Shown piece after piece: positions 3,816 through 64,000 of a stretch of DNA of 64,000 bases. The position numbers and the translations under genes are program-made. The stretch is from assembly GCA_030390025.1 (NCBI GenBank), contig JASTWF010000138.1, positions 434,001 to 498,000 on the forward strand, written 5' to 3'. Numbering within the stretch: the first letter of the stretch is position 1; each line of letters opens with the position of its first letter. The notes below the pieces were generated by a model. That model had not been told where the DNA came from and did not search any database. It saw nothing but the letters and a program-made list of their open reading frames with translations. Origin of the DNA: Squalus acanthias (Eukaryota).

Positions 3816-3891
3816 TAAGCAATTTTCTGTAAAAGTTGAACATAACTTCTCTGCTTTTCACAGTTTTCCCCCTGTATCCCACAACACTAAC

Positions 3892-10650: not shown

Positions 10651-10686
10651 AATACAACCGTTACTGAAAGAGTGAATGTGTCTTAC

Positions 10687-10742
10687 CTGCAGTCACCGTC
10701 ACCATGGTGCCTTGTCCCCAGTATTCGAAGTAGTTGGTATAC
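10687..10742 (-). CDS. IGHJ: JH segment, probably with a pre-joined D2 remnant (DJ)
   Basis: G TAT ACC AAC TAC TTC GAA TAC TGG GGA CAA GGC ACC ATG GTG ACG GTG ACT GCA G|GTAAGA = YTNYFEYWGQGTMVTVTA; WGxG motif; phase-1 donor matches Cmu1. Confidence 0.93.
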
Positions 10743-10770
10743 CACAGTGAGACTCGCCGTGCCAAATACT
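10743..10770 (-). other. 12-bp-spacer RSS 5' of JH
   Basis: Reading away from the coding end: CACAGTG (10743-10749), 12 nt spacer, CCAAATACT (10762-10770; 6/9 match to ACAAAAACC). No nonamer-like sequence at 22-23 nt spacing. Confidence 0.75.
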
Positions 10771-11083
10771 GCGGTGGACTTTTAACTGCAAAATACAGAG
10801 ATGAAATTCCACAGCGCTCTCAAAACCCTGATTCCGACTCCCCTAAGAGTGAATCAGTGAGATATTTCAGTTTGTGCTGGTAATTATCTTTATAAAGGAG
10901 ATTAGAACACTTCTGAAGCACCTGTGCAGATTTAGCACGACAATCAACACTAATAAAGCAGAACACTTTCATACATTTTTACAAATCTTCATTACTTTTA
11001 ACCATTATTTTAATTTAAGCCTAATGTTCTCCGACGCTCCTGCCGTGGCAGTGATCGCAGGTGTGAGCAAACTCCCTGTCTGG

Positions 11084-11121
11084 GGTTTTTGTATGAGGAG
11101 CTCGCTCTGTACAGCACCGTG
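11084..11121 (-). other. 22-bp-spacer RSS 3' of VH(D)
   Basis: CACGGTG (11121-11115), 22 nt spacer, perfect ACAAAAACC (11092-11084). Confidence 0.92.
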
Positions 11122-11437
11122 ACCCCCTGTACGTCTCTTGCACAGTAATAGATGGCGGTGTCTTCGGTCCTCAGGTTCTTCATGTCCAAAGCGAAGATGC
11201 TGTTTGAAGTGTCTTTGGACGCAGTAAATCGGCTCTGAATCCCTGGGGCGTAGCCATTGTTCGATGAACTTTGATATCTAACCAGCCACTCCAGCCCCTG
11301 CCCGGGATACTGCCGGACCCAGTGCATGGTGTAGCTGCCAAGATCGAACCCGCTGGTTTTACAGGTCAGGCTCAGGGAGCCTCCGGGACTCCTGGTCTCT
11401 ACCTCCGGCTGAGTCAACACGACATCCGACTGGACAC
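11122..11437 (-). CDS. IGHV: IgM VH exon with D-like 3' extension (VD)
   Basis: Acceptor ttttacag|; (G)[51 protein letters not shown]...[10 protein letters not shown] followed by GTACAGGGGGT before the heptamer; no stops. Confidence 0.95.
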
Positions 11438-11564
11438 CTGTAAAAACAATCAAAAACCCCGAGGATTAATCCTGGTGAAATGATTCCTGACTCTGTAACA
11501 TTCCAGAGAGAGACTAACACTGAGACAGTAACAGTGAGAGACTTGGACAATAAAAACTACTCAC

Positions 11565-13318: not shown

Positions 13319-13496
13319 NNNNNNNNNNNNNNNNNNNNNNNNNNNNNNNNNNNNNNNNNNNNNNNNNNNNNNNNNNNNNNNNNNNNNNNNNNNNNNNNNN
13401 NNNNNNNNNNNNNNNNNNNNNNNNNNNNNNNNNNNNNNNNNNNNNNNNNNNNNNNNNNNNNNNNNNNNNNNNNNNNNNNNNNNNNNNNNNNNNNNN
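13319..13496. other. Assembly gap (178 N)
   Basis: Run of N between the IgM cluster and the TCR V genes. Confidence 1.
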
Positions 13497-27938: not shown

Positions 27939-28466
27939 GTAGGTATTTCATGAGATTGTAATAGTTCATTTGTTTATTAATGGTAGTTATATTTCTCCTC
28001 TAATGTTTATTGTCTCCACTGTTGACAACACTGCCATATTGACGTACGGTCCTCGGGTTTTGCCCCCCGGTCAGTGAGTGTTCGTAGATTATTCCAAATC
28101 GCCACAACATGGCCGGGCACTGTAAACACGGCAGATTCACGGAGATGCATATTCTCGCGGGAACGGGACCCAGGCTGATTAACCCACTTGTTCCGAGACA
28201 CTGAGACCATTGTACCGTCCACAGCCTGCGATCAGCTAAATGAGGCGCGAAAGCTTTGGACCTTCCCATTCTGTTTCACATTGGCAGTGCGGTTAACAGC
28301 TGAATCAAAGGGGAGATGTGTGTTTGATTGTGTGGTTGTTTGTGTGTATGTGTCTGCGTATGAATGTCTGTTTGTGTGTGTTCTCCAACTATGTGCTTGG
28401 TCTAAAGTAGAAAAACTTTTTATATCTAAATGTTCTATTGATAACCTCCTCTTACTCTGTTTCCAG

Positions 28467-28774
28467 AACCCAGCCGGCAGGATAACCTTTCTCAAGGGCC
28501 TTCACTAGCAACAGTGAGTGAAGGAGATACTGTGCTGTTGCCCTGTAACTACCCCGTCATCTACACAGCCGCTAACCTATTCTGGTATGTACAGTACTCG
28601 GGAACAGGCCTGCAGTATATGCTCGTCAGACACACTGCTGGGAATGAAGAGAACGCACCGGCCTTTACAAAGCGGTTTTCTGCCGTACAGGACAGAATGA
28701 ACAAAAAGATCCCTTTGAACATCACACACACCCAGCTGTCTGACTCCGCCGTGTATTACTGCGCGGCTATGTAG
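28467..28774 (+). CDS. TCR alpha/delta-type V segment 1
   Basis: Acceptor ttccag|; (E)PSRQDNLSQGPSLATVSEGDTVLLPCNYPVIYTAANLFWYVQYSGTGLQYML...RFSA...LNITHTQLSDSAVYYCAAM*; canonical Cys/Trp/Cys. Confidence 0.88.
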
Positions 28775-28813
28775 CACCGCGTTACATGAACCCTTGACAC
28801 TGGTACAAAAACT
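28775..28813 (+). other. 23-RSS of TCR V1
   Basis: CACCGCG + 23 nt + ACAAAAACT. Confidence 0.85.
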
Positions 28814-30987: not shown

Positions 30988-31187
30988 NNNNNNNNNNNNN
31001 NNNNNNNNNNNNNNNNNNNNNNNNNNNNNNNNNNNNNNNNNNNNNNNNNNNNNNNNNNNNNNNNNNNNNNNNNNNNNNNNNNNNNNNNNNNNNNNNNNNN
31101 NNNNNNNNNNNNNNNNNNNNNNNNNNNNNNNNNNNNNNNNNNNNNNNNNNNNNNNNNNNNNNNNNNNNNNNNNNNNNNNNNNNNNNN
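30988..31187. other. Assembly gap (200 N)
   Basis: Run of exactly 200 N. Confidence 1.
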
Positions 31188-39140: not shown

Positions 39141-39904
39141 GGCCCAGAAATTAGACTTCGATGGTTGCCGCGGGGGTAAGGATCGTGCGCGATCTTACCT
39201 ACCGCGCCTGCCTTTATGGTTTTGGCCCACACGAACTTCTGCTCCTGGGCCTCTCCCTGGTGCCGACGCGCAGTGTGTGCGTGTCCCAGAGGCGCAGTTA
39301 GTTCGATGCGACCTCTGGGATCACGTGGGCCAGTTAGAGCCAATGGCAGCACACCATCTTTCATTCATAGTTTTGACAGGAAGAGCTGTCAAAACTATGA
39401 ATACAACTTGCCCCCAAAAGAACAGCTAAACCTCAATTAAATTGTTTTTAAAAACCATCACATTAATAAAATAACTATCGTTAAATAAATTAACCACTTT
39501 AAACAAAAATTTACATTTTTGAAAAAATTTAAATTCTTTTTAAAAGTTATAAAAATAAACTTACCTTTCTTTAAAGTCTCTAAAAAAGATAAACCTGTGA
39601 AAAAATTTAAAATAATACTTAATTAACTACTTACCTTGTTAAAAGGGGGTCTTACGCCTCCTTTTTTCATGTGTAAAATCTTCAATACTTACCCTCGCGT
39701 TCAAACCTGAAAAAAAACCTAAGTGTGCTGCGTGCGCACGGCCTGTAGTGCGCACGCGGTTCACTTAGGAACCGCCCCCTTCGCAATATCGGAAGTGCCG
39801 GTTTCCCGCGCATGCGCAGTGCATGCAGGGAACCGGCACTTCGGAACCGAATATGGGTGAGTACACAGTGCGTACTCTCCCGTATTCGGCCGAATTTCTG
39901 GGCC
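39141..39904. mobile_element. MITE / non-autonomous DNA transposon with terminal inverted repeats
   Basis: GGCCCAGAAATT ... AATTTCTGGGCC; a partial inverted copy lies at about 49690-50115. Confidence 0.7.
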
Positions 39905-45584: not shown

Positions 45585-46200
45585 AAGGAACAGAGAGTTG
45601 TATATCCAAATTTGTAGATGACATTAAATTAGTAGGGCCAGTAAGTAAGTAGTGCAGATATAAGGAGGAAGTTGATAGATTAAATGAGTGGGCAAAACTG
45701 GGGCATATTGAAGTTAATGTGGGCAAAGGGGAGGACATCCACCCTGGACCTAAGAAAGATAAATCGGAGTACTTTCTAAATGGTGAGAAACTAGGTATTG
45801 TCGAGGTGCAAAGTGAATTAGGAGCCCAAGCACACAAATCATTAAAAGCAACTAGACGTGTACAAAGTGCAATCAAAGGGGCTAATGGAATGTTGGTCTT
45901 TATCTCGCGGGGGCTGGAATACAAAGGGCTGAAAGTTCTGCTTCCATTGTGTAAAGTTCCGGTTAGACCGCATCTGGAGAACTGCGTTCAGATCTGGGCA
46001 CCGCACCTCAGGAAGGATAGATTGGCCTTGGAGCGGTTACAGCGCAGATTCACCAGAATGATAACGGGGCACAGAACATTAAATTATGAGGACAGGTTGC
46101 ATAAACTTGGGTTGTATTCCCTTGTGTAGAAATATTGAGGTGTTTCAAATGTTAAACGTATTCGATACGTTAGAAATGGAGAAAATATCCCCTCTAATCG
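45585..46200 (+). mobile_element. CR1 fragment inside the V3 leader intron
   Basis: RPHLENCVQIWAPHLRKD...RRFTRM motif. Confidence 0.8.
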
Positions 46201-46283: not shown

Positions 46284-46554
46284 GTAAAGAGGAAGTTGTA
46301 CAAACATTTCCGTCACAGACTCCCAGTGAATTGAAAACCACATCGATGAACTGTCACACAACCACTCCGTTCACCGCGATATACTGGTACGTACAGCCTC
46401 CAAACCAGAGCCCAAAGCTGTTGATAATGGCATCGGAAAAGGGTGAACATAAAGGTCGATTCACAGCCGTCAGTCGAAGTTCGGAGAATCGCAGCTCCCT
46501 GACTATCGCGGCCTTACTTCTGACAGACACCGCGACCTACTTCTGTGTCGTACA
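46284..46554 (+). CDS. TCR alpha/delta-type V segment 3
   Basis: Acceptor ttttacag|; (G)KEEVVQTFPSQTPSELKTTSMNCHTTTPFTAIYWYVQPPNQSPKLLI...KGRFTA...SSLTIAALLLTDTATYFCVV; TRAV-like; open frame. Confidence 0.92.
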
Positions 46555-46593
46555 CACAGTGTAATAAGGAGCGACAGAGTCCGTACAAAAACC
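46555..46593 (+). other. Consensus 23-RSS of TCR V3
   Basis: CACAGTG + 23 nt + ACAAAAACC (perfect consensus). Confidence 0.95.
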
Positions 46594-46635
46594 GGGGCTG
46601 CTTTTCGGATCGTATGTTTAGGAAGAAGAACGAAC

Positions 46636-46821
46636 GGGGTAGATTTTCAATTTGTGCGATAGTGTAAACCGGGTGATAGGGAATCGGCAGCCCGTTTTAC
46701 ATCTGTGCTGATTAATATTTCCATTGACATCAGTGGAACTACACATCGGGGGAGATGTAAACCGGGCTGCCGACTCGCTCTCACCGGTTTTACACTGTCC
46801 CACAGAGTGAAAATCTACCCC
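46636..46821. mobile_element. Palindromic MITE
   Basis: 14-bp TIR GGGGTAGATTTTCA ... TGAAAATCTACCCC. Confidence 0.75.
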
Positions 46822-47314
46822 AATGTGCATTTGTTCAGCTCGTTTCACGTCTCCAGCGCCCTCCAAAGCGCTTTAAAATTGGTGAATTGCATTTTGAAGA
46901 GTAATTACTGTTCTTCGGACGCAAACATGGTCGGCATTTTGCGCCAAGCAGGATCCCACCAACAACAAACGAGATAAATAAGAGGTTCACTTGTTTTGGG
47001 GGTGCAGGTTGAAGGGAGTAAATTCAAATCCAAGCTGCTGCAACAATATTTCAGTGAGTGAGTGGTCAATCTATGGGACAGGCTCCCTCGGGAGACGGTG
47101 GAAACAATTAGTGTCGATTCATTCAAATGCAAATTGGACCGATGTCATTCATAGAATAAGATTTTGGGAGACAGTGTGTGAGTAATTTGAGACATGACGT
47201 GTGATAAGTACAGAATGCTTGGGAGGAAGAGGTGACTTTGGACCTGCAGTTTCCAAAGCTCTCCACCACTGGGGTTTTCCTCGCCTCATGTCTGGGTCTG
47301 TTGTAGACTCATTG

Positions 47315-48250
47315 GCCGCGAATTTAATTGTGGAGGCGGGATGGGAGCGGGACAGATGGTTTCCGCGTTCCGATCCCGCCCCCAGCTGCCTCCGCTCTGC
47401 AGATGTGATTTTCCCTTGATTGGCCTTGTTGAGCCCCGCCCTGCGGGTTTACCGGCCAATTAACAGGAAGCGGGTCTGATGACGTCATTTGATGACGTGA
47501 CATCTGCCGGTTTCCTTAAAGGGACCATGCACAATTTTATTTTGACAGTTGATCTGTCAGTGTTTGATAGCAATGAGGTGCTGCAAACACTGACAATCAC
47601 TGCACAAAGGTGAACACTTGCACCCAGGCTCTCCAATGACTCCCTCCATATACTTATGGAGGGAGTCACAGCAGGCAGGGAGGTTCTCTTCCCTTCTAAG
47701 GGCGGAAGAGTCCTCCCCAGAATACCAACTTACCTGGAATCTCCACCCAACCCTCTATATCTATATGACTTCCCCATCTCACTAGCCACCCTCACACTCA
47801 CCCTCATCCTACTGCAAGCATACCAACTAACAATACACAAGGGTAGGCACTTGAGAGGTTTAACCAATGTCCATGTGAAGTTTCTGGTAATGTGTTGTCA
47901 TACAGTGTAATATCCTTTACCAAAAATGTCCCTTATTGGACAGATCTGTACGCACATTGAGAAGTGTTTTACTCCCCCTCCCCCCGTCCCGCTATAGTGA
48001 AGAGTGTGCATGGAATGGCTTGGACATTAAAGGGATGCTTCACGTGCTGGTGAGGGATGGTGTCAACCTGGCGCATCATGTGGAAGCCAGGGTTTACAGC
48101 ATCAAGTGAAGAAAATCTAGCATTGGTGGTGCCATCCTGGCCACCCGGACAGCAATTTTGTCAGGGGCTGATGCCCTGTGTCCAGTGCTGCTTCAGGTGG
48201 GTGAGGATGAGGTTGGCGCTCCTGGTGCTGGTGTTGCTCTTGTGGCTGGT
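47315..48250 (+). mobile_element. Harbinger-type element copy (internally deleted)
   Basis: Homology to 20205-21400 (tgatgacgtcatttgatgacg; MEGVTAGREVLFP). Confidence 0.6.
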
Positions 48251-48420
48251 TGTGGTGCTGCCGCGGCTGTACTCGGATTGTTGTGCTTGATATAATGTAC
48301 TCGATTGTAGCGCTTGCTTTAATGTATTCGGATTGTAGCGCTCTCTTGCTATTCGTCTAACAGTATTATTGGATATTGAAGTCTCTTTAAATAGACTCGC
48401 TGGACTTGTTTCCCTTTCAG

Positions 48421-48674
48421 GTGACTTCAGTCAGAGAATAATAGAGACCAATTTTAGTGAGTAGAAGGATCGTCAGTCTGTCACCAGCACCTGGAATTTC
48501 CACGGTGACTAGAAATTGGGTAAACTATCGGTATCCAGAAGGAAATCACAGTCGGAAAACATTCCTCTTGGAGGACGATTTGTTGAATCAGTCAACAAAG
48601 AAAGGAAGTGGTTTACTTTGGGAATGAAGGATCTGGGGATTGAATAAAGCGCCACCTACCGCTGCAAAGCTTAG
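48421..48674 (+). pseudogene. VNAR / NAR-TCR-type V exon pseudogene
   Basis: Acceptor ccctttcag|; phase-1 frame (G)DFSQRIIETNFSE*KDRQSVTSTW...QSENIPLGGRFVESVNKERKWFTLGMKDLGIE*SATYRCKA*; resembles the VNAR framework GGRYVETVN...FSLRIxDLxVEDSxTYRCKA; internal stops; first Cys replaced by Trp. Confidence 0.7.
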
Positions 48675-48759
48675 TGTTGGTTAGGTAAGTCCCAAAGAAC
48701 ATACAGTGGATTCTGCCATCCAAAGTATATCGACACAACTCCGATATATCATAAAAACG

Positions 48760-49685
48760 TAAGAGCCTAAGAAATAGGAGCAGGAGTAGGCCATACGGCC
48801 CCTCGAGCCTGCTCCGCCATTCAATAAGATCATGGCTGATCTTCTACCTCAACTCCACTTTCAAGCCCTATACTCACAACTCTTGATTCCTTTATTGTCC
48901 AAAAATCTATCTCTGTCTTGAATATACTCAAAGACTCAGCATTCACAGCCCTCCGGGGCAGAAAAAATTCCAAAGATTCTCAAACCTCTGTGTGAAGAAA
49001 TTCTTCCACATCTGAGTCCTTAATGGCCAACCCCTTATCCCAAGACTAGGTTCTAGACGCTCCAGCCAGGGCAAACCGCCTCTTAGCCTGAACCGTGTCA
49101 AACCCTATAAAAATGTCATACATTTCAATGAGATCGCATCTCGTTCTTCTGAACTCCAGAGACTATCGGCCCATTCTACTTAATCTCTTCTCAAAGGACA
49201 ACCCTCTCATCCCAGGAATCAATCCAGTGAACTTTTATTGCACCCGCCTCTAAGGCAAGTATATTCTTCCTAGGTAAGGAGACCAAAACTGTGCACAGTA
49301 CTCCAGGTGTGGTCTCACCTAAACCCTATATAATTGCAGCAATACTTACTTACTCTTGTATTCCAAATCCTTGCAATAAAGGCTAACATGCCATTTGCCG
49401 CCCTAATTGCTTGCTGTAACTGTATGCTAAAGTTCTGTGATTCGAGTATAAGGACACCCAAATCCCTCTGCATACCAACATTTATTAGTCTCTCACCTTT
49501 TAAAAAATATTCTGCTTTGCTATTCTTCCTACCAAAGTGGATAATTTCACATTTCCCCACATTATGCTCCATCCGCCACCTTATTGCCCACTCACTTAAT
49601 ATGTCTCTATCCATTTGCAGGCTCTTTGTGTCCTCCTCACAAGTTAGTTACCCACCTAGCATTGTATCGTAAGCAAATGTAGATA
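48760..49685 (-). mobile_element. CR1 LINE 3' fragment
   Basis: Reverse-complement CR1 ORF2 end and tail (ggccatacggcccctcgagcctgctccgccattcaataag). Confidence 0.85.
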
Positions 49686-50269
49686 CATAGGCCCGAAAAT
49701 TAGACCTGATACGCGAGAGTACGCACTGTGTACTCTCGCGTATTAGTTCCAGAATTGCCGGTTTCCTGCATGCACTGCGCATGCGCGGGAAACCGGCACT
49801 TCGTGTATTGCAAAGGGGGCGGTTCTTAAGTGAACTGCGTGCGCGCTACAGGTTGCGCGCACACTGTGCACTTAGTTTTTTTTTCAGGTTTGAACGCGCA
49901 GGTAAGTGGTGAAGATTTTACACATAAAGAAAGCAGGCGTAGGACCCCCTTTTAACAAGGTAAGTCGTTAATTAAGTGTTATTTTAATTTTTTTTCAACA
50001 GGTTTATCTTTTTTAGAGACTTTAAAGAAAGGTAAGTTTATTTTTATAACTTTTAAAAAGATTTTAAATTTTTTCAAAAATTTCATTTTTTGTTTAAAGT
50101 GGTTAATTTATTTAATTGGGTGCTAGGTTGGTTGCTAGGAACTTCAGTATATGTTATGTCGCAAAGGGGTGAAACTCCCGTGCATCTGTGCCTGAGTTTT
50201 GTGACATCACAAAGGTGCCCTGCAGACCACGCCCAGATCTGTGGTTGACCCGGAATCAGCATTTCAAAC

Positions 50270-50980
50270 AGCCCTTCTCCCAAAACATCACATTACACAG
50301 AGTTACAGAGTCTGCAGCACAGCCCTTCTCCCCCACACATCACATTACACAGAGTTACAAAGTCTGCAGCACAGCCCTTCTCCCCAAATCACATTATACA
50401 GAGTTACAGAGTCTGCAGCACAGCCCTTCTCCCCCACACATCACATTACACAGAGTTACAGAGTCTGCAGCAAAGCCCTTCCCCCCACACATCACATTAC
50501 ACAGAGTTACAGAGTCTGCAGCACAGCCCTTCTCCCCCACACATCACATTACACAGAGTTACAGAGTCTGCAGCACAGCCCTTCTCCCCACACATCACAT
50601 TACACAGAGTTACAGAGTCTGCAGCACAGCCCTTCTCCCCACACCACATTACACAGAGTTACAGAGTCTGCAGCACAGCCCTTCTCCAGACATCACATTA
50701 CACAGAGTTACAGAGTCTGCAGCACAGCCCTTCTCCCCACACATCACATTACACAGAGTTACAGAGTCTGCAGCACAGCCCTTTTCCCCACACATCACAT
50801 TACACAGAGTTACAGAGTCTGCAGCACAGCCCTTCTCCCCCACACATCACATTACACAGTGTTACAGAGTCTGCAGCAGAGCCCTTCTCCCCACACATCA
50901 CATTACACAGTTACAGAGTCTGCAGCACCGCCCTTCTCCTCACACATCACTTTACACAGAGTTACAGAGTCTGCAGCACC
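50270..50980. repeat. About 52-bp minisatellite
   Basis: Unit cacatcacattacacagagttacagagtctgcagcacagcccttctcccc, about 13 copies. Confidence 0.92.
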
Positions 50981-51249
50981 GAAGCAGACCTCCCGGCTGC
51001 AGTTTGGTCCGAGCCCGTTTCCCCGAGGATTCCAGGGGGCGGTGGGCCTCAGCGGCTCGTCCGCCTGTGAACAGTAAACTGACAGAGGGACCAGTCCCGC
51101 CCCGCCTCGCCCCTTTTGGCCCAACAAGTCGTGTCAGCTTTTACTCTATCAGGAAATCCTCCTTTTCGTTCTTCCCTCATGTTCTTATCTCGCTACCCCT
51201 TAAATAGCATCTGTGCTAATCGCCTCACTTTTGGAACTATAGACCAATC

Positions 51250-52230
51250 AATTTAACGTCGGTGGTAGGAAAGATAATGGAATCCTTGTTAAATGAGAAA
51301 TTAGAAAAATATTTCGAAACCGAAACTATAATAATGAATTGTGAGCATGGATTTCAAAAGGTTAATTCATGCTTGACGAACCAGATTTAAATATTTGAAG
51401 AGCTAATGGAGAAAGTAGACATGGGTAATGTAGTTGATGTAATTAATCTAGATTTACGAAAGGCCTTCGATAAGGTGCCACATAACAGATTAATGAACCC
51501 GGTCAGAGCATGCGGAGTTATCAGACAATAGCAGAATGGAGAGCTAGCTGGCTTCAAGGCAGAAAGCAGAGTGTAGTGATAAAGGCTAGCTATTCTGAAT
51601 GGCAGAAGGTGGAAGGTGGGGTCCCAGAAGGATCAGTGCTCGGACCACGGTTGTTCACAATTTATATTAACGATTTATACTTTGGAATCAAAAACACAAT
51701 TTCTAAATTTGCGGATGAAACCAAATTGGGGCGGGGGGGGGGGGGGGGGGGTGGGGTGGGATTGTCAATACTGAGGAGGTTGCAACAAATTACAAGAAGA
51801 CATTAATAAACTTCCAGAAAGGGCACATAACTGGCAAACGAATTTCAACGCATAAGTGTGAGGCAATACATTTTGGTAAGTAAAATAAGGAGGTCACATA
51901 TTACATAACATAAGAAATAAGAGCAGGAGTGGGCCATTCGGCCCGTTGAGCCTGCTCCACCATTCAATAAGATCATGGCTGATTTTGTACCTCAACTCCA
52001 CCTACCCGCCCGATCCCCATATCCCTTGGTTCCCCTAGAGTCCAAAAATATATCTATCTCCGTCTTGAATGTACTCAAACATTCATCAAAGCAGCCCTCT
52101 GGGGTGGAGAATCCCAAAGATTCACAACCCTTTGTTGAAGATTTTTTTCCTCATCTCAGTCCTAAATGGCCGACCCCTTATTCTGAAACTGTGACACCTG
52201 GTTCTAGACTCCCCAGCCAGGGGAAACATC
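51250..52230. mobile_element. CR1 fragments (plus-strand RT piece and minus-strand 3' end)
   Basis: VPEGSVLGPRLFTIYIND...KFADETK, then a reversed CR1 tail from about 51905. Confidence 0.8.
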
Positions 52231-52573
52231 CTCCCATTGCTTATTATGTGCTGTGTTTAGCTCGGCGCTTTCCCAGGCAGTGAAAGAGAAGCTGGGCTCA
52301 GTTTGTGTGGCGTGTGTGCGTGAATCACATACCCTGCACATCACCACATTGATCAGGCAGTATAATATTAAGAGACGTAAAATTATTATTGAAACTTGAC
52401 TCTCTGGTCTTCAGACCATGATCTGACTGTGTTCAAGGTGAGATGGGCACAGTTCATGGTTCACTCTCCCCAAATGCTGTCTTCAAAGGGTCAGTTCGTT
52501 TGGTGAATTTCACTGGAAGATAATCCGTCCACAGGAGAACTTTTAATCCCAAGGGTGGATAAATGGAAACAAG

Positions 52574-54160
52574 GGCCGCGATTTTTCTGACCTCGGCGGC
52601 CGATGTCGGTGGCGAGTCCCGACCCCGGTTTCCGCTCCATTCGGCTGTGTAAAATGATTTTCCATTGATGTGGCTCGTAAAGGCCGGCCACGCGTTTCCC
52701 GGTCCAATTCGAGGAAGCGGGTCTGGTGACGTCATTTGATGACGCGTCATCAGCCGGTTTCCTTGAAGAGACCATGGCCAACTTAACCTTGACATTTGTG
52801 CTGTCAGTTTCTGCAGCATTGAGGTGCTGCAAACACTTACAGTGACTGCACAGATGCACAAGGCTGCACGCAGGCTCTCCCATGACTCCCTCCATATGCA
52901 TTTGGAGGTAGTCAAAGCACGCAGGGACGTCGTCTACCCTTCCCATGGGCAGAAGAGACCTCCCCAGGAGACCTAAACAGGCTGGTTGCACATTGCAGAG
53001 GAGGGCACAAGCAGGGATGTGGTCAGGAGGACCAGTCTGCAGTGCCGCAAACGTTTCAATTATCTCAGTAGATCACGAAACGTTCGTACAAAGCCACACT
53101 CAACCTCATCCTACTGTGCCTCTCATCACATCCCCATCACTCTGCCTTCCCTATCCTGCTCTTGCACATCCTTACACATATCAACTTAACTTGCACCTCT
53201 ACCCATCCATCTCTATCTATCTATATTACTACATCACCATCTCCCTAGCCGCGCCTCACACTCAACCCCAGCCTAGTGTAATCATACCAATTAACAACAC
53301 ACAAGGGTAGGCACTGCGTTCTTGGACAGATTTGTGTGCCCCTTTAGAAGTGGCTTAGTGAGTTGCAGTGAATGTTGAGACATAACGGTAACCCCCGTAC
53401 TGGTGATGAGTGTGAAAGGAATGGCTTGGGCATTGTGGGGATGTTTTATGGTGTTGGTGTGGGGTGGTGCCAACCTGGCGCATCATGTGAGTATACAGAG
53501 TCAAGTGAAGTAACTCTGGCCATGGTGAGGCTACCCCTGGCCTCCTGGGCAGCAATGTGGACGGCTGCTGCTGCCCTCTGTCCTGTGCAGCATCAGTTGA
53601 TTGCGGAGAAGGTTGGTGCTGTTGTTGGTGCTGCTGGTGTGCCTGGTGCTGTTGGTGTTGGGGCTGATCGTGCTGGGATCCTGAGGACCAAGGTGAGGGA
53701 ATATAAAGGGCACCTTTGCTGATGGAATAGATGGCAGGTGAATTAGAGATGACAGAAGCGATCTGTCAATGGTGAGATCGGTAATGAGATTAAACTGGAT
53801 GTAGATTTGTGTGAAGATTGCAGCATGGTGATTCTGTTGTGAAAATGCAGTGAGGAAGAGCTTGTGGCTGAGGGAAGATATCTCTGTAAGGTGGGAGCTT
53901 TAACTTGACATTTGAAGTTGTCGACTCATCAGCTGATTCAATGGCCACTGACCTACCTCCTCAGCTTCACAGAAGAGGTCTTGGCACAGCGTGAAACCCG
54001 TGAGCGAGCTGTCACATTCAAAAGGTCAGTTTAAAACCATTGTTCAGTGGCTGTAAACAAGCCACTAATCATTTAAATTGGCTCCCCCGCCGCTGCGTGT
54101 CGGGTCCACCCAACCCGCCTCCGATCGCGCCCACTGACCCCACCACCAGAAAATCTCGGC
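52574..54160 (+). mobile_element. Harbinger-type element copy
   Basis: WLHIAEEGTSRDVVRRTSLQCRKRFNYL, a Myb/SANT (trihelix)-like remnant. Confidence 0.62.
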
Positions 54161-54889
54161 GACTGTACCAGTTCCAAACTAATTCTACTGCCCACTCTCT
54201 CCCCATAGCCTGGTATCAGTCCCAAACTAATCACACTTCTACATTCTATGAACAGACCTGTATAAATCCCCAAACTATTCCAACTACCCCGCACACTCCC
54301 CAAATCCCTGGATCAATCCAAAACGAATTTCATCGCCATGCTCTCTCCGCCTGGCAATCCAAAACTAATCTCAAGTTCCGCGCACTCCCCATAGACTTTT
54401 TTCAATCTCAGACGAAACCCATTGTCCTTCTCCCTCCCCTTAATCCTGTATCAATCCCAAACTCACCCCTCAGTCTCACACTCTCTCCAAAGGCCTGGAA
54501 CAATCCAAAAAAAAAACCATCCCGCTCCCTCCCGATAGCACTGTATCAGTCCCAAACTAATCCCAGTCAGAGGGACCATGAACTATGATGTCACACAGAG
54601 ATTCCAGAGCAATGGACTCCTCATTACCAGAAAGGGAGCACAAAAATAAAACAGCAATAGAAAATTAACAGATGTATTCCAGATTTAATAAGCAACTACC
54701 AGATGATACACAAAGTAAAATAACGACACAATTTCCATTGTCAAACAGTGAGTCATGGGATAACCTTGAACGGACGTTGAGCTCATGCTCTCATTAAAAT
54801 TCCCGCCTGTAGCAGAGAAATTCAGGGCACAACATCTGCAAAGCGCTTGACTGAGAAATTAGTGCTCACCTGTCAGAAAATAGTGATGT

Positions 54890-55850
54890 CTTTGTCATTG
54901 GTACAGTAAGGACAACTGACAGCAAATTAGGATGTTTGTGTCTCTGGTACAGTTAGAACAACTGACAGCAAATTAGGATGTTTGTGTCTCTGGTGCAGGC
55001 AGGTCACCTGTCAGTAAATTGGGATGTTTGTGTCTCTGGTACAGTTAGGACAACTGACAGCAAATTAGGATGTTTGTGTCTCTGGTACAGGCCGGTCACC
55101 TGTCAGTAAATTAGGATGTTTGTGTCTCTGGTAAAGGAAGTCACCTGTCAGTAAATTGGGATGTTTGTGTCTCTGGTACAGGAAGTCACCTGTCAGTAAA
55201 TTGGGATGTTTGTGTCTCTGGTACAGGAAGTCACCTGTCAGTAAATTAGGATGTTTGTGTCTCTGGTAGAGGAAGGTCACCTGTCAGTAAATTAGGATGT
55301 TTGTGCCTCTGGTACAGGCAGGTCACCTGTCAGTAAATTGGGATGTTTGTATCTCTGGTACAGGAAGGTCACCTGTCAGTAAATTGGGATGTTTGTGCCT
55401 CTGGTACAGGCAGGTCACCTGTCAGTAAATTGGGATGTTTGTATCTCTGGTACAGGAAGGTCACCTGTCAGTAAATTGGGATGTTTATGTCTCTGTTACA
55501 GGAAAGTCACCTGTCAGTAAATTAGGATGTTTGTGTCTCTGGTACAGGACGGACACCTGTCAGTAAAATGGAATGTTTGTGTCGCTGGTACAGGAAGGTC
55601 ACCTGTCAGTAAATTGGGATGTTTGTGTCTCTGGTACAGGAAAGTCACCGGTCAGTAAATTGGGAGGTTTGTGTCCCTGGTACAGAAATACCACCTGTCG
55701 GTAAATTGGGATGTTTGTGTCTCTGGTACAGGAAGATCACCTGTCGGTAAATTGGGATGTTTGTGTCTCTGGTACAGGAAGTCACCTATCAGTAAATTGG
55801 GATGTTTGGGTCACTGGTACAGAAAGGTCACCTGATAGTAAATTGGGATG
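54890..55850. repeat. 45-46-bp minisatellite
   Basis: Unit cacctgtcagtaaattgggatgtttgtgtctctggtacaggaaggt, about 20 copies. Confidence 0.93.
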
Positions 55851-56072
55851 TAAGGTCTCCACCCCATTCCACAACTCTATGCTGCTCATTGCACTGTTGG
55901 AATCTTATCTTTACACTAATACAGATGGTGATATTTGTATGCCACCGAACAGGGAGATGTTTCCTGTTTACATCAATACATTCCCAGCGGCGGAAATTTT
56001 TTTTTCCAAATGTAAAGCAGGCTCGAGCTATTCTGAAAAGGCAGAATTGTTGCTGGAACTTAATTTTTTTCT

Positions 56073-56974
56073 TTATTTAATTAATTTACCTATGGGGCCC
56101 AGCGGATATCGCACCATATTCTTTAACTGCTCCCTGAATTTGCTCTGAGTCACTGCATAAATAAACGTGTTTGTGCAGCAACTCAACAGCTGAAGCATAT
56201 TTGCGCTTTCTAGGAGGATAAATTTGGGGTCACTGAAACCGTTGATTTTATAATCAATTGTAAATCGCTCATAAAAGAATTGTCCAACATACGTCATCCA
56301 CAACAGGATGAAACTACCCGAAATGGCGAAGAGTAAAACGATGGATTTTCTCCGGCTTTCCATCTCTGGGTCACTCTGATTCTCTCCATTGCTGTTGGCC
56401 CGGAGTCTCCTGCGGGCTCTACTGGCCGCTAGAATGTATCTGACGGTCAGAGCATTGAGCAGCAATATCAGGAAGAACGGGAGACATGGGGTTAAAAGAC
56501 GATCAGTCCAATCAAATACTGTCCATACAAGCGAAGTATAACGGATATCCTTCTGTCTGCAATACCACGGGACATTGTTAATTATGTAGATGGGTTCGTA
56601 TATAAAATACCAGGGAACGCTTTTAAAACATCCCAGCGCACAAACCGTTCCTATAACAACAGCCGCCGTTTTCTCGGTGCAATATTTTGCCTTCAGCTTC
56701 TGGCAACAAATGGCTACAAATCGATCAAAGGTGAAAGTGACTGTTAACCAAACAGAACAGTCTCTGGCTGCATAAATTAACGCAATGCTGAGGCTACATA
56801 CGGGAGTAATGGACAGGAAGCTACCTGGAAAATAAATACTCGGAATCCGGTTTAATATCACAGCAGTGATAATGACCAAGAGATCCGTCACCGCCATGGA
56901 CACCAGGTACCGAGTGATACATCTGGAGAGACCGCACCTTCCTCGGGACAGGATCACAATCGCCACTAAATTAA
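56073..56974 (-). CDS. Class A GPCR, GPR139-like (shark-expanded family), exon 2
   Basis: Acceptor tcttacag|; (V)NLVAIVILSRGRCGLSRCITRYLVSMAVTDLL...FTFDRFVAICC...LLSCCTNTFIYAVTQSKFREQ; 7TM pattern; stop at 56073-56075. Confidence 0.88.
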
Positions 56975-57054
56975 CTGTAAGAAAGAGAGCGAAAGAAGAG
57001 AGGTTACAGAGTAAACTCCCAGCAGAAGGAATATATTTAACGGAATTATTGGTC

Positions 57055-58750
57055 AGAGATGGGGGGAGCAGGGAGAGAGAAACCGAACGGATGGAGAGAG
57101 CAGGGAGAGATAAACCGAACGGATGGGGAGAGCAGGGAGAGATAAACCGAACGGATGGGGAGAGCGGGGAGAGATAAACCGAACGGATGGGGGGAGCAGG
57201 GAGAGATAAACCGAACGGATGGGGAGAGCAGGGAGAGATAAACCGAACGGATGGGGAGAGCGGGGAGAGATAAACCTAACGGATGGGTCCAGCAGGGAGA
57301 GATAAACCGAACGGATGGGGGGAGCAGGGAGAGAGATAAACCGAACGGATGGGGGGAGCGGGGAGAGATAAACCGAACGGATGGGGAGAGCAGGGAGAGA
57401 TAAACCGAACGGATGTGGGAGAGCAGGGAGAGATAAACCGAACGGATGGGGGAGCGGGGAGAGATAAACCGAACGATGGGGAGAGCAGGGAGAGATAAAC
57501 CGAACGGATGGGGGGAGCAGGGAGAGATAAACCGAACGGATGGGGAGAGCAGGGAGAGATAAACAGAACGGATGGGTCGAGCAGGGAGAGATAAACCGAA
57601 CGGATGGGGGGAGCAGGGAGAGATATACCGAACGGATGGGGGGAGCAGGGAGAGAGATAAACCGAACGGATGGGGAGAGCAGGGAGAGATAATCCGAACG
57701 GATGGGGAGAGCGGGGAGAGATAAACCGAACGGATGGGGGGAGCAGGGAGAGATAATCCGAACGGATGGGGAGAGCGGGGAGAGATAAACCGAACGGATG
57801 GGGGAGCAGGGAGAGATAAACCGAACGGATGGGGAGAGCAGGGAGAGAGATAAACCGAATGGATGGGGAGAGCAGGGAGAGATAATCCGAACGGATGGGG
57901 AGAGCAGGGAGAGAGATAAACCGAACGGATGGCGAGAGCGGGGAGAGATAAACCGAACAGATAGGGAGAGCGGGGAGAGATAAACCGAACGGATGGGGAG
58001 AGCAGGGAGAGATAAACCGAACGGATGGGGAGGGCAGGGAGAGATAAACGAACGGATGGGGAGAGCAGGGAGAGAGATAAACCGAACGGATGGGGAGAGC
58101 GGGGAGAGATAAACTGAACGGATGGGGAGAGCAGGGAGAGATAAACCGAACGGATGGGGAGAGCAGGGAGAGATAAACCGAACGGATGGGGGGAGCAGGG
58201 AGAGATAAACCGAACGGATGAGGGGAGCGGGGAGAGATAAACATAACGGATGGGGGGAGCAGGGAGAGATAAACCGAACGGATGGGGAGAGCAGGGAGAG
58301 ATAAACCGAACGGATGGGGAGAGCAGGGAGAGAGACAAACCGAACCGATGGGGGGAGCGGGGAAAGAGATACCGAACGGATGGGGAGAGCAGGGAGAGAT
58401 AAACCGAACGGATGGGGAGAGCGGGGAGAGATAAACCGAACGGATGGGGGGAGCAGGGAGAGATAAACCGAACGGATGGGGGGAGCAGGGAGAGATAAAC
58501 CGAACGGATGGGGAGAGCGGGGAGAGATAAACTGAACGGATGGGGAGAGCAGGGAGAGAGATAAACCGAACGGATGGGGAGAGCGGGGAGAGATAAACCG
58601 AACGGATGGGGAGAGCGGGGAGAGATAAACTGAACGGATGGGGAGAGCAGGGAGAGAGATAAACTGAACGGATGGGGAGAGCGGGGAGAGATAAACCGAA
58701 CGGATGGGGAGAGCAGGGAGAGAGATAAACTGAACGGATGGGGAGAGCGG
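57055..58750. repeat. G/A-rich about 31-33-bp minisatellite in the GPCR intron
   Basis: Unit ccgaacggatggggagagcagggagagataaa, about 50 copies. Confidence 0.95.
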
Positions 58751-59309
58751 GGACAGCGAATCCGAGCAGGAGCCCGGGATGGAAGTTCCTGGGAAATGGG
58801 CTATTCTTGAATCCAGTCACTTACTTCATTGTCGTGAATTATCAATAACGCGTTGAGCTATAACTTACTTCAATAAGTTAATTCCTTCACACCAAATCAC
58901 AATTTCATTACTTATTGAATTAACTCACCCAATCTTAATTTATTAATTACTTAATCAAAGCAGTTAGTGATAAAAGCATTTGAGAAATTCAGCCAGGAAC
59001 GACATATTTCTGAATCGGTGTAAAATCTGGTAAAAATAAATGTTAACAGAAGACAAATAGCAATTCCATTCACCTCATACAGTTATGTCCATTAATTGTT
59101 GGCCCTTTGTATTCTCGTGGCCTGTTCAATTTTGAGAGGGCCAGGATACCAAGTTCCCCAACCTCATCTTCCACTCACATGATCTGCGGGTTCTTCAGTT
59201 TAATGGTGGGATGGACTTTGAACATGTGGGCAAGGTTACTGCATTTTTCACAATATTACACATGTTGGAGTTCACTGCTTGTTTCACAGCCGCTAAACAG
59301 ATTAGGAAA

Positions 59310-59880
59310 CTAGGAGCAAGAGGAGGCCATTCAGCCCATCTAGCGTGCTCCGCCTTTCAACTAAATCATGGCTGATGTGAATCTTAACTCCATTTACCCG
59401 TCTCGGTTCCATATCCCTTAATGCCCATGCCTAAAAAAAATCTCTCATTCTGAGTTTTGACATTTTCAATTGCCCTAGTCTCAACAGAATTTTTGGAGAT
59501 AGAGATCCAGTTTTACACTACCCTTTGTGTGAAGAAGTGTTTCCTCACTTCACCCCTGAACGGCCGAGCTCTAATTTTACGGTTATGCCCCTTTGTTCTG
59601 GATTCTGTCGCCAGAGGAAAAGTTTCTCTCTATCTACCCTATCATCGTAAACACCTCTTGATCTTCTATTCTCAGGGAATTCAAACCACGTTTATGCAAC
59701 CTGTCCTCATAATTTAACCCTCTAAGCCCCGGTATCATTGTGGTGAATCTGCCCTGCACCTCCTCCAAGGCCAATGAATTCTTCCTGAGTTGCGGTGCCC
59801 AGAACTGAACACAGTACTTCAGATGCGGTCTGACCAGGGCGTTGGTATTCCAGCACTTGGAGATAACAGCTAACAATCCA
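59310..59880 (-). mobile_element. CR1 LINE 3' fragment in the GPCR intron
   Basis: ALVRPHLKYCVQFWAPQLRK motif. Confidence 0.8.
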
Positions 59881-59913
59881 TTAATTAATGACTAGCTTGC
59901 TGCAGTACTTTAC

Positions 59914-59983
59914 CTGGAACAGCGATAGCTGCAAGGGCAGTGTAGTAAATGGCATAGACCGGGCCTTCGGGCGGGACGTGCAT
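59914..59983 (-). CDS. GPR139-like GPCR exon 1
   Basis: MHVPPEGPVYAIYYTALAAIAVP + G|GTAAAG; 70 nt phase 1; joined to exon 2 gives 972 nt (323 aa plus stop). Confidence 0.82.
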
Positions 59984-60519
59984 TTTCTGTGAGAAGCAGC
60001 GATGTCTGTTCGGGATCCCACACGCGCTCTGTTCGACATTCGAAGGATCGCTTATTATACCTGATGTTAACCCCCCATGGACATAATTAGATAGAATCAA
60101 CATTAATGTTAGTCACGCTCATTGAACAAACATCTTAGGTGACATCACCATTTATGTTAGCGGCAGTCATTGAAGAAATAGAATAGGTTGCATTACCTTT
60201 AATGTTAGTTACAGTCATTGAACAAACAAGTTAATGCAGTCGATTTTACCTTCATTTTTAATGCAATAGAATGGATAAACATAGAGGTCACAGAGTTTTA
60301 AAGGGAAACGTTGCATCCTTTAGGAAAGAAAACCTCCTGTACATACCCGGTCTGGCCGAAAAGTGACTCCAATCCCATACCAACGTGGTTGACCATTAAC
60401 TGCCCTCTGAAGGGGCCCAGCAACCTAGTCACTTGTATCAAAAAGCTACAAAGGAACAAAAGAATAAAACCGGATGGACCATTGGCTGCGACATAATCAC
60501 AGAATTCGGAGACAAGAAA

Positions 60520-63500
60520 AGCACACCCAGCCCAGTCCACCCTGCCAAGTCCTTCACACTAACATCTGGAGATTGGCGCCAAAGTTGGGAGAGCTGCCTC
60601 ACAGAGTAGTTCATCAACAGCTTGACATAGTTATGATCCCAGAATCATACCGACAAGCCAAGGTCCCAAACTCCTCCATCACCATGCTTGCGTATGTCCT
60701 GTCCCACCAGCAGGACAGACCCACCAGAAGTGACGGTATACAGTCTAGGGGTGGTGGCCCTGGGAGTCTTCTATGTTGATGCTGTACTCCATGACGCGCA
60801 TGGCTTCAGCTCAAACAAGGGGAAGGAAACCTCCTGTTCATTACCACCCCACCATCTCTCAGCTGATGAATCGGTACTGTGCAATGTTGAAAACCTCTTG
60901 CAGGAAGCAACGAGGAGATAAACGGAAATAACAACAGAAAACGCTGGAAAAACTCAGCAGGCCAGGCAGCATCCGTGGAGAGAGAAACAGAGTTAACGTT
61001 TCAGGTCGAAGACCTTTCGTCAGAACGGTGGAGATAAACGGTGTAGAACCTACTCTGGGAGGGGGACTTCAATGTCCATCACCAAATGTGGCTCGGTAGC
61101 AACACTACTGACCGAGCTGGCCGAGTCCTGAAGGACATAACTGCCAAACTGGGCTTGTGACAGGTGGTGAGATATACAACACCAGGGAATAAACTACTCG
61201 ATCTCAGACTCCGGAATCTACCTGTCGTGGATTCATCTGTCCATGACAGTATTGGTATGAATGACCACCACACAGTCCTTGTGGAGTCCCCTCTTCACAC
61301 TGAGGACACCATCCATCGTGTTGTGTGACACTACCACCGTGCTAAATGGGATAGATTCAGAAGAGATCCAGCAGCTCAAAACTGGGCATCCATGAGGCGC
61401 TGTGGGCCATCAGCAGCAGCAGAATTGTATTCCACCACAATCTGTAACCTCATGACCCGGCATATCCCTCACTCTACCATTACCAGCAAGCCAGGGGATC
61501 AACCCTGGTTCAATGAAGAGTGTAGAAGAGCATGCCAGGAGCAGCACTAGGTGTACCTATAAATGAGGTGCCAACCTGGGGAAGCTGCAACACAGGACTA
61601 CAGGCATGCTAAACAGCGGAAGCAGCATGCTATAGACTGAGCTAAGCGATCTCACAATCTCACGGATCAGAGAACGGTAGCATAGTGGTTATGTTACTGG
61701 ACTAGTGATCCAGAGACCCTAGATTAATGATCAGGAGACATGAGTTCAAATCCCACCACAGGCAGCTGGGGAATTTAAATTCAATTAATTATATTAATCT
61801 GCAATTAAAAACTAGTATCAGTAATGGTGACCATGAAACCACCGGATTGTTGTAAAAACCCATCTGGTTCTCTAATGTCCTTTAGGGAAGGAAATCTGCC
61901 GTCCTTACCTGGTCTGGCCTATATATGACTCCAGACCCGCAGCAATGTAGTTGACTCTTAATTGCCCTCTGTGGTTCACAAAGGCGGCTCACCACCACCT
62001 TCTCAAGGGCAATAAATACCGGCTTTGCCAGCGACGCCCACATCCCATGAACAAAAAAAAAGATTAAAGCTCTGCAGTCCTGCCACATCCAGTCGTGAAT
62101 GGCGGTGCACAATTAAACAACTAATGGGAGGAGGAGGCTCCATGAATATCCCCATCCTCAATGATGACGAAGCCCAGCAGGCGAGCGCAAAAGACAAGGC
62201 TGAAACATTTGCAGCCAGAAGTGCTGAGTGGATGATCCATATCATCCCCACGATCACAGAAGCCAATCCGATTCACTCCACGTGATATCAAGAAACGACT
62301 GAGCGCACTGGATACAGCAAAGGTTATGGGCCCTGACAACATTCCGGTTATCGTGCTGAAGACTTCTGTTCCGGAACTAGCCAAGCTGTTTCAGTACAGC
62401 TACACAACTGGCATCTATCCGACAATGTAGAAAACTGCCCAGGTATGTTCTGTCCACAAAAAGCAGGACCCGGCCAATTACCGGCCCATCAGTCTACTCT
62501 CAATCATCAGAAAATTGATGGAAGGTGTCATCGACAGTGCTATCAAGCGGCACCTTCTCACCGATGCTCACTTTGGGTTCCGCCAGGACCACTCGGCTCC
62601 AGACTTCATTAAAGCCTTGGTCCAAACATGGACAAAAGAGCTGAATTCCAGAGGTGAGGTGAGAACTACTGCCCTTGACATCAACGCAGCATTTGACCGA
62701 GTGTGGTATCAAGGAGCTCTAGTAAAACTGAAGTTAATGGGAATCAGGGGGATAATGCTCCACTGGCTGGAGTCATACAAAGGAAGATGGTTGTGGTTGT
62801 TGGAGGTCAATCATCTCAGCCCCAGGACATCGTTGCAGGAGTTCCTCAGGGCAGTGTCCTAGGCCTAACCATCTTCAGCTGCTCCATCATTGACCTTCCC
62901 TCCATCATAAGGTCAGAAGTGGGGATGTTCGCTGATGACTGCACAGTGTTCAGCGCCATTCGCAACTCCTCAGATAAGGAAGCAGTCCATGCCCGCATGC
63001 ACCAAATCCTGGATGACATTCAGGCTTGGGCTGATAAGAGGCAAGTAACATTCGCGCCAGGCAATGACTATCTCCAACAAGTGAGAGTCTAACCACCGCC
63101 CCTTGACATTCAACGTTATTACCATCACCGAATCCCCCACCATCAACATCCTGGGGGTCACCATTGACCAGAAACTTAACTGGACCAGCCACATAAATAC
63201 TGTGGCAACAAGAGCAGGTCAAAGGCTGAGTATTCTGCGGCGAGTGTCTCACCTCCTGACTCCACAAAGCATTTCCACCATCTACAAGGCACAAGTAAGG
63301 AGTTTGATGGAATACTCTCCACTTGCCTGGATGAGTGCAGCTCCAACAACACTCAAGAAGCTCGTCACCATCCAGGACAAAGCAGCCCGCTTGATTGGCA
63401 CCCCATCCACCACCTTAAACATTTACTCCCTCCACCACCGGCGTACCGTGGCTGCAGTGTGTACCATCTACAAGATGCACTGCAGCAACTCGCCAAGGTT

Positions 63501-63820
63501 TCTTCGGCAGCACCTCCCAAACCCGCGACCTCTTCCACCTAGAAGGACAAGGGCAGCAGGCGCATGGGAACACCACCACCACCAAGTTCCCCTCCAGGTC
63601 ACACACCATCCTGACTTGGAAGTATATCGTCGATCCTTCATCGACGCTGGGTCAAAATCCTGGAACTCCCTCCCTAACAGCACTGTGGGAGTACCTTCAC
63701 CACACGGACTGCAGCGGTTCAAGAAGGCGGCTCACCACCACCTTCTCAAGGGCAATTAGGGATGGGCAATAAATGCTGGCCTGGTCAGAGACGCCCACAT
63801 CCCATAAACGAATAAAAAAA
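60520..63820 (+). mobile_element. Non-LTR retrotransposon (CR1/L2 group), endonuclease and RT remnants, degraded
   Basis: GDFNVHH-like endonuclease motif at about 61060, ALDINAAFDRVW, PQGSVLG...FADDCT, IYKAQVRSLMEY; 3' end with an A tail at about 63820. Confidence 0.85.
61674..62060 (+). mobile_element. tRNA-derived SINE nested in the LINE
   Basis: A-box-like ggtagcatagtggt, B-box GAGTTCAAATCC, 3' tail matching the host LINE 3' end, A tail. Confidence 0.75.
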
Positions 63821-64000
63821 AGACATACCGAAACCGCCCTGTAGTTTGTTTCCTTTTCTACACCACATTCTTTTCCAATATGAGTGAAAGTTATAAGGAC
63901 AGTTTTTCACGCACTGCTGGTGTTAAGCTGTTGTTAACGAGGACCCGCCCTACACCTCACCGTTTGAACCCGCTCCCGCGCTCTGCTCCCGGGCACTTTA

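Follow-up and report, generated by a model that had tools for sequence, protein, structure and literature searches.

A decayed NAR-type V exon among TCR V segments in an antigen-receptor complex of Squalus acanthias

The window (64,000 nucleotides of Squalus acanthias DNA, the whole stretch analyzed here) contains, at 48421–48671 of the + strand, what its sequence identifies as a decayed NAR-type V exon, termed here the NAR pseudo-V. It is real but an ordinary immune pseudogene, unannotated and situated in a locus of described type. With its 5′ cysteines changed, stops in the frame, and heptamer and nonamer decayed, it is dead as a coding unit; the open frame, the full pair of canonical Cys residues, and the intact CAC heptamer and nonamer of a functional rearranging V are not found in it. 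We favor the NAR-TCR lineage over IgNAR, a preference that falls short of proof, because of the N-terminus, the a–b loop, the long germline tail in register, and the position among TCR V segments and an IgM cluster. An earlier note, made from the sequence alone, had called the element a decayed NAR-TCR V; the NAR type and the decay stand, and the choice of NAR-TCR stands as a preference only, as AU tests reject neither lineage. The NAR-TCR (NARTCR) V segment of cartilaginous fish was reportedly described by Criscitiello in 2006. The features of the exon and its immediate surroundings are as follows.

47364–48269, no strand assigned: high-copy interspersed repeat that bounds the island on its 5′ side (depth up to 1e4–1e5 in four read sets)
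48268–48342, no strand assigned: 27-bp tandem repeat, 2.7 copies, at the expected leader-exon site (repeat scan)
48400–48420, + strand: polypyrimidine tract and AG acceptor (AG 48419–48420), phase 1, split-leader type (sequence)
48421–48509, + strand: strands A–B, with FSQ start, a–b-loop Arg, and first Cys changed to Trp (translation, profile alignment)
48510–48554, + strand: CDR1-FR2 remnant, shortened, frame ambiguous (translation, shuffles)
48555–48671, + strand: ENIPLGGRF to CKA, strands D–F, no CDR2, the best-kept part (PDB, library, and frame-3 matches)
48672–48701, + strand: 30-nt tail, opening with TAG, then two codons resembling the YW of relatives (comparison with relatives)
48702–48741, + strand: decayed RSS with heptamer TACAGTG, spacer of the 22–24-nt class, and a nonamer with at least 3 mismatches (RSS scan)
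48749–49688, no strand assigned: high-copy LINE/SINE-like repeat, starting 8 nt past the putative nonamer (depth up to 1e7)

Directly behind the polypyrimidine-AG acceptor, which the earlier note had described as clean, the exon begins at 48421 in phase 1. The frame-3 peptide quoted there, with its stop and CKA, is likewise present: GGR lies at 48570, the second Cys at 48663, and the end of CKA at 48671, and a TAA (48645–48647) occupies the Asp position of a DSATY-type motif. A frame-3 TAG at 48510–48512 falls in the CDR1-FR2 remnant, and the shifted-frame NYRYP, also reported before, is found in frame 1 at 48523–48537 (YRYP, 48526–48537). The longest open stretch of frame 3 is 44 codons, and therefore no ORF was called. 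The 5′ third is recognizable too, as evidenced by the FSQ start, KDRQS at the a–b loop, and a Trp (48492–48494) at the first canonical Cys. The a–b-loop Cys, which is present in all 15 relatives with that region, reads Arg (CGT, 48471–48473), a codon one change from Cys and also one change from the Gly of VNARs, and its neighbors K and Q match NAR-TCR exactly. Alignment to the NAR-TCR profile calls for two small deletions that offset each other, near 48447 and near 48463, at all three penalties tried, and these inferred deletions would account for a missing codon and for the TAG at 48462.

The assignment to the NAR type draws on several searches. The frame-3 reading with stops written as X (P0001) was the query for the PDB search; its best solved-structure matches are VNARs (phmmer E 9.4e-9, 7spp), and the next class follows at E 0.27. 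The best 30 of 63 PDB sequences lie between E 9.4e-9 and 1.4e-4; 27 of them carry the name VNAR or new antigen receptor, and the remaining three are close kin of a VNAR. A frameshift-aware NAR-TCR V profile scores 106.7 on the island, and the best score from eight locally shuffled 15-kb downstream regions is 34.7–45.3. A comparison with IgNAR V and NAR-TCR V had been proposed in the earlier note and gives similarity on both sides; neither a want of such similarity nor a better transposon match, the two outcomes it had named as contrary, was found, the VNAR match being E 9.4e-9 and the island low-copy. By hand count the Cys-to-Cys span is 57 codons, with 59–63 in NAR-TCR, 61 in the VNAR P0019, and 64 and 72 in two TCR V of the window. 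This short span gives the NAR pseudo-V the CDR2/C′-C″-less form of a NAR-type V, which is a V-set domain described as having no CDR2/C′-C″ strands (PMC5192425). In trees it groups with NAR V, apart from TCR V and VH (clade support 99/97).

Chance resemblance or a transposon origin is the most improbable of all the readings considered. It would fit with the Pfam V-set match, which is sub-threshold (16.8 bits vs a cut-off of 26) and equaled in score by a spurious DUF4847 match, and with an island flanked by repeats; however, the E of 9e-9 to VNARs, a profile score over double that of the best shuffle, and an island that is unique in the window and low-copy in the reads refute it. Shorter or alternative queries returned little. 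No family matched the 38-aa open piece, frame 1 of 48421–48546 alone gave 0 PDB matches, and word searches with the frame-3 reading yielded no candidate among proteins of 46–147 aa and 23 candidates among proteins of 148–2000 aa, none of them at E 0.01.

The PDB ranking does not discriminate between NAR-TCR and IgNAR because no entry named NAR-TCR occurs among the PDB matches. A phmmer scan of 1.84 billion protein representatives with a cut-off of E 0.001 returned nine matches at that level or better, eight of which are shark proteins; P0010 (a 607-aa repeat protein, E 9e-4) was dropped as spurious. Seven of the eight shark proteins combine a NAR-like V and a J with a further V that bears a CDR1 Cys. 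As hallmarks of NAR-TCR V, PMC1845163 gives a leader, an a–b-loop Cys, and the absence of Trp in WYRK, and it describes the supporting V as leaderless with a CDR1 Cys. By these sequence features we assigned the shark proteins, whose source names are uncharacterized or TCR-like, to the NAR-TCR type. No IgNAR was found at E 0.001 in this library, a result to be read with the fact that the scores of the NAR-TCR-type matches include second domains. Profile searching added eight further NAR-TCR-type V and two VNARs; P0003 and P0005, mis-spliced in their 5′ parts, were excluded from the NAR-TCR V profiles and from the trees.

The 5′ part of the exon resembles NAR-TCR more closely. Over the 10 codons before the first Cys, the NAR pseudo-V is 5–8 changes from 15 NAR-TCR blocks and 9–10 from two VNAR blocks, and shuffles do as well in 0 of 2000 cases for NAR-TCR and in 88 of 2000 for VNAR. 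The FSQ start matches NAR-TCR with 4–8 changes per 24 nt; the phmmer alignment spans residues 2–83 in two of the eight NAR-TCR models, and among the VNAR matches listed no alignment begins before residue 32. Further likenesses to NAR-TCR V (XP_078058183.1, XP_067870253.1, XP_038643991.1, GCC20034.1) are the CDR2-less form, the FSQ start after a phase-1 acceptor, K-D/E-x-Q-S before strand B, GGRF, CKA, a T-H-S-frame heptamer after a long tail, and a site among TCR alpha/delta V and IgM clusters, with 34–39% identity between frame 3 and six V domains. Unlike NAR-TCR V, the NAR pseudo-V has its a–b-loop and first Cys changed, carries stops and deletions, has a tail 12 nt longer, and shows a possible WYR-type motif in place of FF[RK], along with E, L, and R at three IgNAR-like positions; leader, J, and supporting V were not found.

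Toward the 3′ end the comparison is a tie. The GGR-to-CKA block is 17–28 changes from NAR-TCR and 18 (P0019) and 24 from VNAR, and it contains the VNAR-like E of VES, K-D-L, and R of TYRC. Change counts for the whole domain also tie, at 78–90 for 11 NAR-TCR and 78 and 87 for two VNAR. The middle of the exon leans toward VNAR, as frame-1 YRYP is two changes from VNAR YWYR (p 0.022, 4000 shuffles), whereas FFRQ fits no better than chance (5 changes, p 0.99). The canonical Trp of WYRK occurs in none of the 18 NAR-TCR-type V retrieved, and no frame of the NAR pseudo-V now has it. The earlier note had offered NYRYP, as a one-substitution relic of NYWYP, in support of NAR-TCR. Because NAR-TCR V do not have that Trp, the clue points to IgNAR and counts against the very inference it was meant to support.

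These observations bear on a second reading, in which the exon is an orphaned IgNAR V that has lost its D-J-C cluster and been left behind in a group of TCR V genes. The likeness to IgNAR V (7SPP_C from Squalus acanthias, 8HT3_A from Okamejei kenojei) comprises the CDR2-less fold type, VESVNK, KDL, the SATY stretch, and the possible YWYR remnant, with 57% identity to 7SPP over the 3′ half. In addition, the top PDB matches are VNARs, alignment to P0019 costs 78, the same as the best alignment to NAR-TCR, the P0019 alignment accounts for the missing 5′ codon by a single codon deletion, and AU p values of 0.29–0.43 leave room for the placement. Nevertheless, we regard an orphaned IgNAR V as quite unlikely. 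The PDB ranking is uninformative for the reason given above, the library produced eight NAR-TCR-type matches and 0 IgNAR at E 0.001, strands A–B are the poorer fit (9–10 vs 5–8 changes), and F rather than Y follows GGR. No J or C exons lie downstream, the setting is a TCR V/IgM zone, and single-isotype IgH clusters are described in PMC12227049 as grouped rather than mixed with other isotypes.

Trees were built with only two VNARs, and with 13 NAR-TCR rows in a first set and 10 in a second. The best trees place the NAR pseudo-V with or inside NAR-TCR (88/63), and AU tests do not reject a VNAR-side or basal placement (p 0.29 in the first set, 0.39–0.43 in the second). In the first set a branch with support 64/81 has all 13 NAR-TCR rows on one side and leaves the NAR pseudo-V on the other. 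In the second, with YRYP included, it is sister to all 10 NAR-TCR rows, 0.79 lnL from basal/VNAR trees, and masking the middle brings it inside NAR-TCR. Per-site lnL under two readings shows 5′ columns favoring NAR-TCR and the GGR end favoring VNAR (+9.8/−2.6 and +1.4/−2.1), part of this signal coming from columns where the NAR pseudo-V is gapped. Its branch is long (0.9–1.0).

Such a mixture could also mean that the exon is left over from a NAR V lineage that stood between NAR-TCR V and IgNAR V, or that it is a gene-conversion chimera of both, with NAR-TCR-like strands A–B and tail, a WYR Trp motif, and IgNAR-like D–F strands; in the TCR V array it would have served as a single-domain V able to rearrange. 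The sister position with YRYP included, the branch separating 13 NAR-TCR rows from the NAR pseudo-V, and the opposite preferences of the two ends in both readings speak for this view, and the two word searches brought up no significant protein sharing three 5-mers. We still hold it to be unlikely. Decay alone would draw a long pseudogene branch to the base of a clade, masking the middle moves the NAR pseudo-V inside NAR-TCR, the YWYR match is post hoc at p 0.02 and requires two further frameshifts, and the per-site signal comes partly from gapped columns with n = 2 VNARs. No description of a NAR V intermediate between the two lineages was found in the literature searched, which included few of the specialist shark TCR-delta papers.

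The window itself is part of a shark antigen-receptor complex, and its receptor elements outside the island are as follows.

About 11121–11465, − strand: VH of an IgM-type cluster
Near 10720, − strand: J of this cluster
3890–4200, 3144–3470, 654–962, and near 150, − strand: C exons of this cluster
About 28460, 37150, and 46285, + strand: three TCR alpha/delta-type V with good 23-RSS (RSS scan)

The cluster's isotype, presumably IgM, was assigned by likeness to shark IgM CH1, and a PDB search with its CH2 gives mixed heavy-chain matches. Within 10680–11465 (− strand), the VH extends 20 nt past its second Cys to a 22-RSS with a perfect nonamer at 11121; about 370 nt on, a 12-spacer RSS is followed by a segment continuous with J, and no further RSS lies between. 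From its sequence the cluster looks partly germline-joined, VD-DJ, and VD-DJ clusters are a known class (PMC5192425). The three TCR V lie upstream of the NAR pseudo-V on the same strand, which puts it within a TCR alpha/delta V array; TCR-delta C is not in the 64-kb window. The arrangement is like that of the elasmobranch AgRC of PMC12227049, where an IgM cluster, TCR alpha/delta V, and NARTCR V are interspersed, and Table S1 of that source shows NARTCR V, IgM clusters, and TCR V intermingled on great white chromosome 27. The same table includes pseudogene V segments and one NARTCR model marked "pseudo??"; it consists of annotated gene models, and a remnant as decayed as the NAR pseudo-V would escape gene prediction.

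Several other elements of the window were recorded. The TCR V at 28460–28813 (+) has a TAG directly before its CACCGCG heptamer and a weak leader donor, lacks a CDR1 Cys, and is the window V closest to a supporting V-delta (64.9 bits). The TCR V at 46285–46593 (+) is open with a perfect 23-RSS and no leader within 400 nt; a LINE-like repeat (45679–46145) lies just 5′ of it, and just past its RSS is a 186-bp imperfect palindrome (46636–46821, 78% self-complementary) that is probably a small non-autonomous DNA element. Two 426-bp repeats in inverted orientation (39481–39904 and 49690–50115, 88.5% alike) enclose the third TCR V and the NAR pseudo-V and could act as a substrate for inversion. Farther downstream, a rhodopsin-family GPCR exon (56073–57060, − strand; Pfam 7tm_1 E 2.6e-20) adjoins a 32-bp VNTR of 52 copies, and a hydrophobic piece at about 59900–60000 (−) may be the first exon of the GPCR. 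Three minisatellites, at 50268–50979 (51 bp x 14), 54866–55851 (46 bp x 21.5), and 57058–58753 (32 bp x 52.5), give rise to long spurious ORFs. Assembly gaps at 13319–13496 (178 N) and 30988–31187 (200 N) make order and orientation across them uncertain.

Behind CKA, the GTAAGT donor and the weak RSS-like TACAGTG of the earlier note lie at 48685–48690 and 48702–48708, the latter exactly 30 nt past CKA. The donor is near-perfect and in phase 1, one of 12 GTAAGT on the + strand of the 64 kb; TACAGTG has lost the first C of the heptamer, and the nonamer is poor, with 3 mismatches at a 24-nt spacer. Relatives read through their germline ends in two ways, one class having six codons followed by H-S or H-G (P0003, P0012, P0018, P0022) and the other ending in x-Q-stop (P0011, P0013–P0017). 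From this protein read-through, rather than from DNA, we infer a heptamer 10–18 nt past CKA in both classes. The first three tail codons of the NAR pseudo-V are two changes from the QYW of P0012, and T-Y-S at 48699–48707 is one change from T-H-S in P0003 and P0018, in the same frame; ACA followed by a heptamer within one mismatch occurs five times on the + strand of the 64 kb. Because of this shared frame, TACAGTG is most simply, and probably, the NAR pseudo-V's own RSS with its first C mutated. The 30-nt tail would then be the long germline tail typical of NAR-TCR V, as judged among NAR-TCR-type relatives, with 12 extra nt relative to the 18-nt class, the longest inferred. What had seemed an odd 3′ side is thereby reduced to this extra length, the heptamer lying in the T-H-S frame and the donor not being kept in a second copy described below.

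The additional length admits a modification of the preferred account, in which the tail is a germline V-D join and the heptamer at 48702 belongs to the 3′ RSS of the D segment. A join of this kind is conceivable, since germline joining seems to have occurred in the IgM cluster of this same window, a germline-joined NARTCR V is listed for great white (PMC12227049 Table S1), and the tail exceeds the longest inferred relative tail by 12 nt. On the other side, the ACA (Thr) before the heptamer and its frame reproduce the T-H-S pattern of the V itself in four relatives (P0003, P0012, P0018, P0022), and we consider the join doubtful.

The island, 48270–48748, occurs once in the window, and its read depth of 60–135, with flank peaks of 1e4–1e7, marks it as low-copy. 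Four of 24 listed read sets were compared for further copies; only X1 (about 55% read) covers the island substantially, without 48456–48573. Contigs of X1 that differ from the window by 0 and 1 have depths of 76.6 and 38.8, and a second version has depths of 44.9 and 21.3 in two variant contigs that are not physically linked. The second version shows four substitutions and a 10-nt deletion spanning the acceptor in 48334–48455, and 11 substitutions with a 1-nt insertion in 48574–48733, a divergence from the window of about 4–7% that suggests a paralogue and not an allele. It is identical at the TAA (48645–48647) and at the first base of the heptamer, and it has AAG for the TAG at 48672 and GTAAAT for GTAAGT. 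Since both copies are broken and the TAA stop and heptamer lesion are common to both, they diverged after inactivation. At 80% likeness, X9 and X10 show no cover of the island and X13 gives short low-depth pieces only, so that no orthologue was seen.

The second copy also bears on whether the exon was once a functional, non-rearranging V exon spliced via the phase-1 GTAAGT at 48685 to a downstream exon. The quality of the donor, its 12 occurrences in 64 kb of + strand, and the replacement of the stop before it by AAG in the second copy agree with such an exon, which is nonetheless highly improbable, as the second copy reads GTAAAT, the upstream TAA is common to both copies, a G strand is absent (no J-like motif), the RSS remnant is in register, and no Ig exon was found downstream. 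With GTAAAT in the second copy and nothing downstream to splice to, the GTAAGT inside the tail appears incidental.

The partners of a NAR-TCR cassette were sought on both sides of the exon. A NAR-TCR-like leader scoring above shuffles was not found in 46600–48420 (best cost 11; shuffle minima 9–14), a weak candidate lying within the 27-bp repeat (ATG 48295, 13 codons, weak donor, 86-nt intron). Because the leader region is disrupted by this repeat and by the high-copy interspersed repeat next to it, the absence is compatible with decay. Downstream, neither a J nor a supporting V was found on the + strand of 48750–64000 (15.3 kb) at the sensitivity tested, and D segments, sought via their RSS only, are represented by no convincing RSS, so the earlier note's statement that no D, J, or supporting V follows is upheld for J and supporting V and holds for D as far as an RSS search reaches. 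No C-type match better than E 0.65 and no J motif occur downstream of 48700, and the V-D-D-D-J-C arrangement of an IgNAR cluster was not found at the NAR pseudo-V. Two-V NARTCR models span 3.8–12 kb (n = 5; PMC12227049 Table S1), less than the 15.3 kb searched, and the missing partners count against a NAR-TCR cassette. One candidate supporting V-delta, at 51096–50977 (−), is no more than a lead: its score of 62.4 is matched by 5 of 298 single-strand shuffles, non-V sequence of the window scores 64.6 and 62.4, and the strand is wrong. That stretch, 2.3 kb from the NAR pseudo-V, carries CQFTVH and TAAG-like motifs and ends at the 51-bp VNTR.

The likeliest account, and in our judgment a probable one, is that the NAR pseudo-V belongs, as its V segment, to a NAR-TCR cassette of the shark antigen-receptor complex that is now dead. 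In NAR-TCR, the rearranged V is spliced to a supporting V-delta, which yields a TCR-delta chain of three domains (PMC12227049, PMC5931798, PMC6795676, PMC3457774), and by analogy we apply this mechanism to the present copy. In its live form, a leader exon would have been spliced to the phase-1 acceptor at 48420, and RAG would have cut at the heptamer at 48702, joining the CDR2-less V to the D and J of its own cassette. This rearranged unit would then have been spliced onto a leaderless supporting V-delta already rearranged to TCR-delta D-J-C, and would have formed the top domain, unpaired, of a delta chain with three domains.

Decayed V segments are to be expected in a birth-and-death antigen-receptor complex, and the NAR pseudo-V, as read here, matters little in itself. 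NARTCR V beside IgM clusters and TCR V have already been tabulated for other sharks (PMC12227049 Table S1). For annotation, the finding indicates that unannotated NAR-type remnants exist and have been duplicated after decay. PMC12227049 still gives only a "most likely" direction for the transfer of the V from one of the two loci to the other, and for that reason the exon would be of interest to comparative immunologists if, and only if, the mixed NAR-TCR/IgNAR features were ancestral. Should the intermediate lineage prove true, the NAR pseudo-V would be a molecular fossil of the passage of the single-domain V from one locus to the other, TCR-delta and IgH, and the direction of passage could be tested on intact orthologues from other sharks.
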